A stretch of 549 nt of DNA from Escherichia coli. GTDB lineage: Bacteria; Pseudomonadota; Gammaproteobacteria; Enterobacterales; Enterobacteriaceae. The position numbers and the translations under genes are program-made. Shown piece after piece: positions 1 to 549 of the stretch. The stretch lies in the NCBI RefSeq assembly GCF_003334305.1, contig NZ_QOWS01000074.1, one strand, 5' to 3'. Within the stretch, counting starts at the first letter, position 1; every line of letters begins with the position of its first letter. Under the pieces are notes generated by a model. The model worked only from the letters and a program-made list of their open reading frames with translations, had not been told where the DNA came from and searched no databases.

Positions 1-549
1 ATATCACCGGACGGTAAACGCAGCACCATCGAATATGATAAACGCGGGCGTCCGGTGAGTGTGACGGAAGGCGGTCTGACGCGCAGCATGGGGTATGACG
101 CTGCCGGGCGCATCACTGTGCTGACCAACGAGAACGGCAGCCAGTCCACGTTCCGGTATGACCCGGTCGACAGGCTGACGGAGCAGCGCGGCTTTGACGG
201 CCGGACGCAACGTTACCAGTATGACCTGACCGGAAAACTCACGCAGAGTGAAGATGAGGGGCTTATCACCCTCTGGCATTACGATGCGTCGGACCGTATC
301 ACCCGGCGCACGGTGAACGGTGAACCGGCGGAGCAGTGGCAGTATGACGACCACGGCTGGCTGACAGAAATCAGCCACCTGAGTGAAGGCCACCGTGTGG
401 CGGTCCACTACGGCTATGACGATAAAGGCCGTCTGACGGGCGAACGGCAGACTGACGGAGAAGACGGACCGCATCCCGACGGGTGTGATACGGACGGACG
501 ACGAGCGGACCCACCACTACCACTACGACAGCCAGCACCGCCTGGTGTT
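1..549 (+). CDS. Rhs-family YD-repeat protein, internal fragment of the conserved core; both ends lie outside the window. Frame 1 for 1-450, Rhs reading continues in frame 2 from about 452, so the gene is frame-disrupted and possibly a pseudogene or deletion remnant.
   Basis: Frame 1 translation of 1-450 has no stop: [150 protein letters not shown]. It carries repeated xYxYDxxGR(L/I)T motifs, the YD-repeat signature. Frame 2 translation of 437-547 is [37 protein letters not shown], which I recognise from memory as a segment of the E. coli RhsA-type core. High G+C (about 61%) is typical of Rhs cores. Assignment to a specific paralog (rhsA/B/C/D) is not possible from this fragment. Confidence 0.88.
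31..547 (+). repeat. Array of eight degenerate YD-repeat units (coding repeats, period about 60-63 nt; last unit in frame 2)
   Basis: Y-D dipeptide codons at 34-39 (EYD), 94-99 (GYD), 157-162 (RYD), 220-225 (QYD), 280-285 (HYD), 343-348 (QYD), 415-420 (GYD) in frame 1 and 524-529 (HYD) in frame 2. Spacing of the first six intervals is 60-63 nt. Most units are followed by G/D-R/K-(L/I)-T. The hexamer tatgac recurs five times at nucleotide level. Confidence 0.85.
433..458 (+). other. Frame-shift / out-of-register repeat junction within the Rhs core (frame 1 to frame 2)
   Basis: Direct 7-nt repeat ctgacgg at 433-439 and 452-458, offset by 19 nt (19 mod 3 = 1). The 19-mers 421-439 (gataaaggccgtctgacgg) and 440-458 (gcgaacggcagactgacgg) match at 14 of 19 positions. 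Frame 2 has TGA at 434-436 and then reads [12 protein letters not shown]. Frame 1 reads GRLTGERQ and then loses all YD-repeat character. Confidence 0.6.

Follow-up and report, generated by a model that had tools for sequence, protein, structure and literature searches.

High G+C content in an Escherichia coli sequence: a long-known Rhs-core signature in a vgrG-linked copy probably inactivated by deletion

In intact Rhs proteins a closed shell, folded from the YD repeats, surrounds a C-terminal toxin, and the N-terminal region loads the protein on the VgrG spike, the whole being fired into neighbouring cells. A small gene downstream of rhs encodes an immunity protein that protects the producer. 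The GC richness of Rhs cores, an anomaly known ever since Rhs elements were first characterised, has historically been taken as evidence for their acquisition, and a 1998 paper by Wang, Zhao and Hill is reportedly the primary source of the horizontal-origin interpretation. The general pattern, a G+C-rich core followed by an A+T-rich tip, has been set out by Jackson et al. (2009; PMC2935791), who give core and tip values of 67.7% and 46.4% GC for a Serratia clade II rhs gene. The same study inferred that rhs position 1 predates E. coli and considered recombination between cores at different loci to be infrequent (Jackson et al., 2009).

The sequence analysed here, referred to as the window, is a stretch of 549 nucleotides from E. 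coli containing 132 A, 158 C, 179 G and 80 T, giving a G+C content of 61.4% (337 of 549), with values of 55–66% across all 100-nt sub-windows. An earlier note, made from the letters alone, had arrived at the same 337 bases (about 61%), a count which the present one reproduces exactly. It had further held that this was GC-rich relative to an E. coli host at roughly 51% and fitted the known pattern of Rhs cores, while pointing out that host context was needed. That context is supplied by E. coli chromosomes matching the window at 100%, and both proposals are borne out. ECC-1470, a phylogroup B1 carrier of the deletion junction described below, has a published genome GC of 50.7% (PMC4373696). As host background, 200 kb of its chromosome were sampled from four distant parts, comprising 132 ORF-proxy genes rather than the whole annotated genome. 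The overall GC of this sample is 49.6%, its 549-nt windows have a mean of 0.496 (sd 0.056, maximum 0.619), and 2 of 3,960 (0.05%) reach or exceed the 61.4% of the window. A host of similarly high G+C, which the earlier note had named as grounds for dismissing the anomaly, was looked for and is not what was found. The anomaly is real, but it is a long-known signature of Rhs cores, and for that reason its confirmation in the window adds nothing new.

A megablast search of the window against 5,426 complete E. coli genomes recovered positions 1–549 at 100% identity in five chromosomes (S42, A7, strain 41, TUM12355 and 2c3), and positions 2–549 at 100% in hundreds more. The window lies inside an rhs gene situated immediately downstream of hcp-vgrG, in a cluster of T6SS (type VI secretion system) genes by tRNA-Asp (PMC8715443), between dnaQ and fadE. 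Both hcp and vgrG stand directly upstream at all inspected loci. In the scheme of Jackson et al. (2009; PMC2935791) the locus corresponds to rhs “position 1” (dnaQ-fadE), clade I. In every carrier inspected the PGAP label for the gene is [quoted passage not shown]. The nomenclature of the cluster, which is integrated at tRNA-Asp, is inconsistent, that of ECC-1470 being named “subtype i1 T6SS/1” in one source (PMC5422975) and “T6SS-2 genetic organization” in another (PMC8715443). Downstream of rhs come, in order, ydcD, a small gene of hypothetical product, a pair of decayed ISAs1 copies and yafV-ivy-fadE. The two ISAs1-family transposase genes, tandem and decayed, occupy the interval between ydcD and yafV (17457–19822 of one locus) and are conserved in the carriers, in PEC131 and in E24377A. 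The ISAs1 copies correspond to the “H-repeat” elements classically tied to Rhs elements. Composition along the locus changes sharply, from 50–57% GC in the T6SS and housekeeping neighbours to 61–69% in the rhs core, then falling to 31–38% in the toxin tip and 27% in ydcD, with 38–41% in the ISAs1 remnants.

The gene to which the window belongs contains two open reading frames, and the window overlaps the end of one and the beginning of the other. Positions 1–443 (plus strand, frame +1) carry the YD-repeat core of the vgrG-linked, “rhs1” type gene, corresponding to RHS_core 614–763 (NCBIfam NF041261, TIGR01643), with ORF1 codon 615 starting at nucleotide 1 of the window. On this strand lie five overlapping matches to Pfam RHS_repeat (PF05593), at approximately 34–141, 94–207, 157–246, 220–312 and 343–462, equivalent to ORF1 residues 626–661, 646–683, 667–696, 688–718 and 729–768. 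They are five of the ten such matches (E <= 0.001) in ORF1 as a whole, and on TIGR01643 a score of 59 bits is obtained for the window peptide. The N-terminal region of ORF1 carries a DUF6531 domain (residues 47–123); a PAAR domain was not called by Pfam in ORF1. Positions 453–549 (plus strand) belong to a core segment of the ydcD-linked, “rhs2” type gene, the true frame of which is +2, matching RHS_core from about position 956.

Intact rhs genes match the window as two pieces, 570–590 nt further apart than they stand here. The most informative locus is that of PEC131, where two intact rhs genes are arranged as vgrG-rhs1-(Sel1-like gene)-ISAs1-hypothetical-DUF3969-rhs2-ydcD. Compared with it, the first 2.29 kb of the gene under study are approximately 100% identical to rhs1 and the last 1.36 kb are 100% identical to rhs2; within the window, positions 1–443 differ from rhs1 at 3 sites (1, 78 and 441) and the sequence from 444 onward is 100% identical to rhs2. 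A base-level three-way alignment carries rhs1 identity up to window position 452 and rhs2 identity from 444, and the overlap at 444–452 (plus strand) is a 9-nt microhomology, ACGGCAGAC, common to both parental sites, across which the frame changes from +1 to +2. In the left parent this 9-mer reads (E)RQT and in the right parent (Y)GRL. It is found in PEC131 at position 2286 of rhs1 and twice in rhs2, at 2220 (in register) and at 2807 (587 nt downstream); the junction used the downstream rhs2 copy, leaving the joined segments 587 nt out of register. Aligned as whole loci, ECC-1470 and PEC131 are separated by a single gap of exactly 8,231 bp (mod 3 = 2) with collinear flanks of 99.0% and 99.86% identity, and their downstream gene order is identical. 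A deletion between two copies of the 9-mer brought an rhs1-type 5' core together with an rhs2-type 3' core, and in the process about 191 residues of the shell were lost and the reading frame changed.

The full gene bears the marks of such an event. ORF1 (830 aa) covers RHS_core 1–764 and ORF2 (457 aa), in the next frame, covers 956–1261, with about 191 positions of the shell model (765–955) missing between them. Only ORF2 contains the RHS-associated core domain (TIGR03696, 87 bits; PF03527) and the DUF6973 tip, and both are out of frame with the N-terminal part. Scored on NF041261, ORF1 reaches 1564 bits and ORF2 653 bits, each below the equivalog cut-off of 2000, compared with 2638 and 2549 bits for the intact PEC131 rhs1 and rhs2. 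The window is of Rhs-core origin, but the gene is a frameshifted pseudogene. The earlier note had read frame +1 as one continuous Rhs frame, and the frame-shifting junction at 444–452 had thereby been missed.

Despite the frame-shifting deletion, all 549 bases are open in frame +1, which is rich in YD-type repeats. Beyond about position 452 the frame encodes a low-complexity, out-of-frame tail, which stays open until a stop at the window-equivalent position 646–648. High-GC coding sequence is poor in wrong-frame stops, and frame +1 therefore remained open after the frameshift; an open frame here constitutes no evidence of an intact gene. A further antisense ORF of 156 codons with an ATG start (window 4–474, minus strand) is read as a shadow ORF, as expected in GC-rich coding sequence with few stops in other frames.

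The frame change also affects how the G+C excess is to be analysed at the codon level. Values for the raw frame +1 of the whole window (GC1/2/3 of 0.69/0.50/0.66) are misleading because the last 97 nt are truly read in frame +2, and mixing both frames masked the GC3 signal until the frames were separated. An initial idea, founded on these raw values, of an unremarkable GC3 and an excess due to amino-acid composition was ruled out on frame separation. With frames separated, the window gives GC1/2/3 of 0.643/0.451/0.758 against 0.578/0.399/0.529 in the 132 host proxy genes, none of which reaches the window in either GC3 or total GC, and 30 of the last 32 codons of the window in the true frame end in G or C. 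The comparison of GC and codon usage with the host, which the earlier note had proposed, thus reveals a genuine anomaly. When the window peptide is re-encoded with host codon usage, 52.8% GC is expected against 61.7% observed, the host gene mean being 50.2%; for the whole 3.7-kb core the corresponding figures are 56.1% and 64.0%. The re-encoding result assigns approximately 23% of the excess to amino-acid composition and approximately 77% to synonymous choice.

This synonymous excess is a preference for codons that end in G and are little used in E. coli. Their shares in the rhs core and in the host are, respectively, 41% and 8% for CGG, 12% and 1.4% for AGG, 59% and 26% for ACG, 34% and 14% for GGG, 69% and 35% for GCG, 70% and 33% for GTG, and 66% and 28% for GAG. 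The codon-usage distance of the core from the host pool is 0.311, in comparison with 0.167 +/- 0.050 for host genes (about 2.9 sd), and that of the 549-nt window alone is 0.305, within the top 6% of size-matched host gene chunks; the anomaly is convincing at the scale of the core and marginal for the window on its own. The excess is also asymmetric. Across the whole core (for example 7158–10847 of one locus) four-fold codons favour G over C, with ACG at 59% and ACC at only 21% and with CGG and AGG strongly raised, a preference which matches the skews of the window itself (G 179 against C 158, A 132 against T 80).

Among the features by which horizontally acquired DNA was judged, deviating base composition (61.4% against a host at 49.6–50.7%), deviating synonymous codon usage (at core scale, the window alone falling in the top 6%) and association with a tRNA and mobile elements (tRNA-Asp adjacent, two ISAs1 remnants downstream) were all found. 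A recent arrival, absent from the corresponding site of a sister species, was not, for E. albertii harbours an intact ortholog of 1,424 aa at the same locus, flanked upstream by a vgrG-like ORF and downstream by ORFs of the size of yafV, ivy and fadE. The core of this gene has a GC of 63.8% and a GC3 of 0.771, between flanks near 50%. The same anomaly in this ortholog, together with a locus that, according to Jackson et al. (2009), predates E. coli, implies that the import was ancient or that the bias is actively maintained. The signature is old and gives no evidence of recent transfer, and composition alone does not demonstrate horizontal origin. E. albertii was the only genuine cross-species relative recovered by a contig scan intended to compare core GC with host GC, the remaining hits being short, mis-binned E. 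coli-like contigs. Contigs assigned to metagenome-assembled genomes (MAGs) of Akkermansia muciniphila, Lentisphaerae and Collinsella encode Rhs cores 75–98% identical to the E. coli protein, and 4 of 5 such contigs have 61–64% GC. Their presence in unrelated gut MAGs is probably a matter of mis-binning, aided by a composition unlike that of E. coli; the anomaly is seemingly enough for E. coli rhs contigs to be binned into unrelated genomes.

The simplest reading of the high GC is that it may be the legacy of an ancient acquisition from a putative GC-richer donor, decaying slowly or maintained, and two other explanations have to be weighed against it. One holds that the composition only reflects which amino acids make up YD repeats (Gly, Arg, Asp, Thr, Ala), with no evolutionary signal in it. 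It accounts for the raised GC1 and GC2 of the window, and the GC2 of the whole core lies 2.7 sd above host genes, but most of the excess is synonymous, as the re-encoding demonstrates, and distant YD shells from low-GC hosts do not exceed their neighbours in GC. The shells used as this control are plasmid-borne Rhs/YD shells only 25–33% identical, so they control for fold and not for clade: the Nostoc shell has 42.5% GC against 42.6% in its neighbours and the Paenibacillus shell 39.1% against 42.8%, both lacking a synonymous excess, and the agreement with their neighbours indicates that the excess is not intrinsic to YD shells. The amino-acid explanation is largely refuted already by re-encoding and by the distant shells, and is judged very improbable. 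The other holds that high GC has been actively maintained since before the split of E. coli and E. albertii, for instance by GC-biased gene conversion among recombining rhs paralogs or by selection on DNA or mRNA. Persistence of the bias from before that split runs contrary to simple amelioration, a GC3 of 0.76–0.77 in both orthologs being hard to square with decay towards the host value of 0.53. Active gene conversion is indicated by cores that are mosaic, with up to 257 clustered differences between junction-bearing alleles, and by an rhs copy beside pptA that is 100% identical to window 2–452; furthermore, Rhs shells from two plasmids, one IncC and one of Burkholderia, show a moderate synonymous excess of 4–5 points over their neighbours. 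Against maintenance, the bias of four-fold codons towards G over C is a strand asymmetry, which is no simple prediction of symmetric GC-biased conversion, and the Nostoc and Paenibacillus shells carry no excess at all. Active maintenance is accordingly regarded as possible though rather unlikely. Were it true, Rhs cores at a maintained equilibrium would lend themselves naturally to testing GC-biased conversion in bacteria, and would caution against taking GC anomalies as evidence of horizontal transfer.

The copy beside pptA is found in TUM1881, where an rhs gene next to pptA/yddH (“position 6” of Jackson; 7149–11378 of the locus) contains the identical core sequence. This identity shows recent exchange of core sequence between different chromosomal loci.

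An 82-nt probe spanning the junction is present at full length in 406 of 5,426 (7.5%) complete E. coli genomes, O104:H4 C227-11 among them. All six carriers inspected have the same junction sequence, although their 5' cores are mosaic. The inter-rhs segment of PEC131 type is kept in only 28 genomes. Additional changes are seen at individual loci: vgrG is frameshifted in ST130 (1947–4090 of the locus); O39:H21 carries a truncated vgrG and an additional stop within rhs (2176–7399); and in strain 41 (10930–13810) vgrG and rhs are fused, the T6SS core being partly deleted. Further decay of vgrG and rhs in these three carriers fits relaxed selection. In the literature searched no description of the junction was found, and such an absence does not prove the junction undescribed; the detail is a modest one that had passed without remark, in a common allele of E. 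coli which automatic annotation had already flagged as “frameshifted”.

As to how the junction arose, it might be supposed that the frame change is an artefact of assembly or sequencing, or else reflects programmed frameshifting in a gene that still functions. In favour of an artefact there is only the tendency of repeated rhs cores to assemble poorly from short reads, while the identical junction recurs in 406 independently assembled complete genomes and in the six inspected loci, neighbouring genes are further decayed in some carriers and, a point which tells equally against programmed frameshifting, the roughly 191 shell positions (765–955) would be missing even with it. This supposition is considered extremely improbable. 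The number of steps taken by the deletion is a more evenly balanced matter. Loss of 8,231 bp in one deletion, starting from a PEC131-like locus, is the simplest history and is slightly favoured; it had at one time been treated as settled and was downgraded after intact single-copy chimeras such as that of E24377A were found. In the alternative, in-register recombination of the tandem rhs genes would first have yielded an intact vgrG-rhs-ydcD chimera, and a slippage deletion of 587 bp between the 9-mers would have followed. The existence of intact single-copy vgrG-rhs-ydcD genes at this locus with the same downstream arrangement makes this route mechanistically attractive, and E24377A, which possesses one, is reported as sister to the carrier ECC-1470 (PMC4373696). 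A hypothetical in-register chimera, built in silico, gives a clean open frame. Short-homology deletions are in general far commoner over hundreds of bases than over 8 kb.

The two-step route nevertheless requires that the first crossover fell inside the 587 nt later deleted, and if a PEC131-like locus underwent one deletion, no additional event has to be assumed. In the 100 nt left of the junction E24377A shares only 80% identity with the pseudogene, and it was rejected as a direct parent on that account. Among the genomes searched, no intact gene joins the rhs1-type left flank and the rhs2-type right flank exactly; the best match, at 98.9%, is JCKP02's second rhs, whose 14 mismatches over the span of the window led to its rejection as a direct parent as well. 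The JCKP02 gene (DUF3969-linked; 9199–13445 of the locus) is itself annotated as frameshifted, yet is the closest to the hypothetical in-register parent. Two steps are thus rated somewhat less probable than one, and with no exact intact parent among the genomes searched the history of the deletion is not uniquely reconstructed.

Whichever route was taken, a shell lacking about 191 positions and a toxin out of frame mean that the effector is almost certainly dead, and the product of the junction allele, as predicted from its sequence, almost certainly non-functional. Downstream of the pseudogene ydcD is intact; it is annotated as a YdcD family protein, with no significant Pfam match. It starts 17 nt before the rhs stop codon, such that the two genes overlap (16793–17375 of one locus), and a 186-nt “hypothetical protein” (WP_122985282.1) is annotated antisense over its 3' end. 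Going by its gene position, ydcD would still confer immunity. A dead effector with intact ydcD in 7.5% of complete genomes may represent a widespread state, disarmed but still immune. The junction allele would mark the loss, common and lineage-level, of a T6SS effector whose neighbour ydcD is kept, and this could matter for competition between E. coli strains.

Taken together, the window is, with high confidence, a GC-rich YD-repeat core of an rhs gene at position 1, bearing the old compositional signature of Rhs cores in a copy inactivated by deletion. It shares with the E. coli Rhs elements of clade I, position 1, the YD core, DUF6531, the RHS-associated core with PF03527, the succession from GC-rich core to A+T-rich tip and ydcD, vgrG and hcp upstream, and ISAs1 downstream, but differs from them in lacking about 191 shell positions and in having its C-terminal third, including the toxin tip, in another frame. 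The tandem rhs1/rhs2 of PEC131 and the intact vgrG-rhs-ydcD gene of E24377A (WP_000509144.1) occupy the same chromosomal locus with the same downstream genes; the 3' 1.36 kb of the window allele are 100% identical, and its 5' 2.3 kb approximately 100% identical to PEC131 rhs1. These genes are full-length and open, whereas the window allele is without 587 nt of register, or 8,231 bp relative to PEC131. Jackson et al. (2009) also described Rhs pseudogenes, relics and dissociated C-terminal fragments, with which the window allele shares a broken rhs at a conserved locus and a stranded C-terminal core-plus-tip followed by the downstream gene. Its stranded segment, however, is no displaced tip past an intact gene but was fused to the 5' core itself by a deletion at 9 nt of microhomology.
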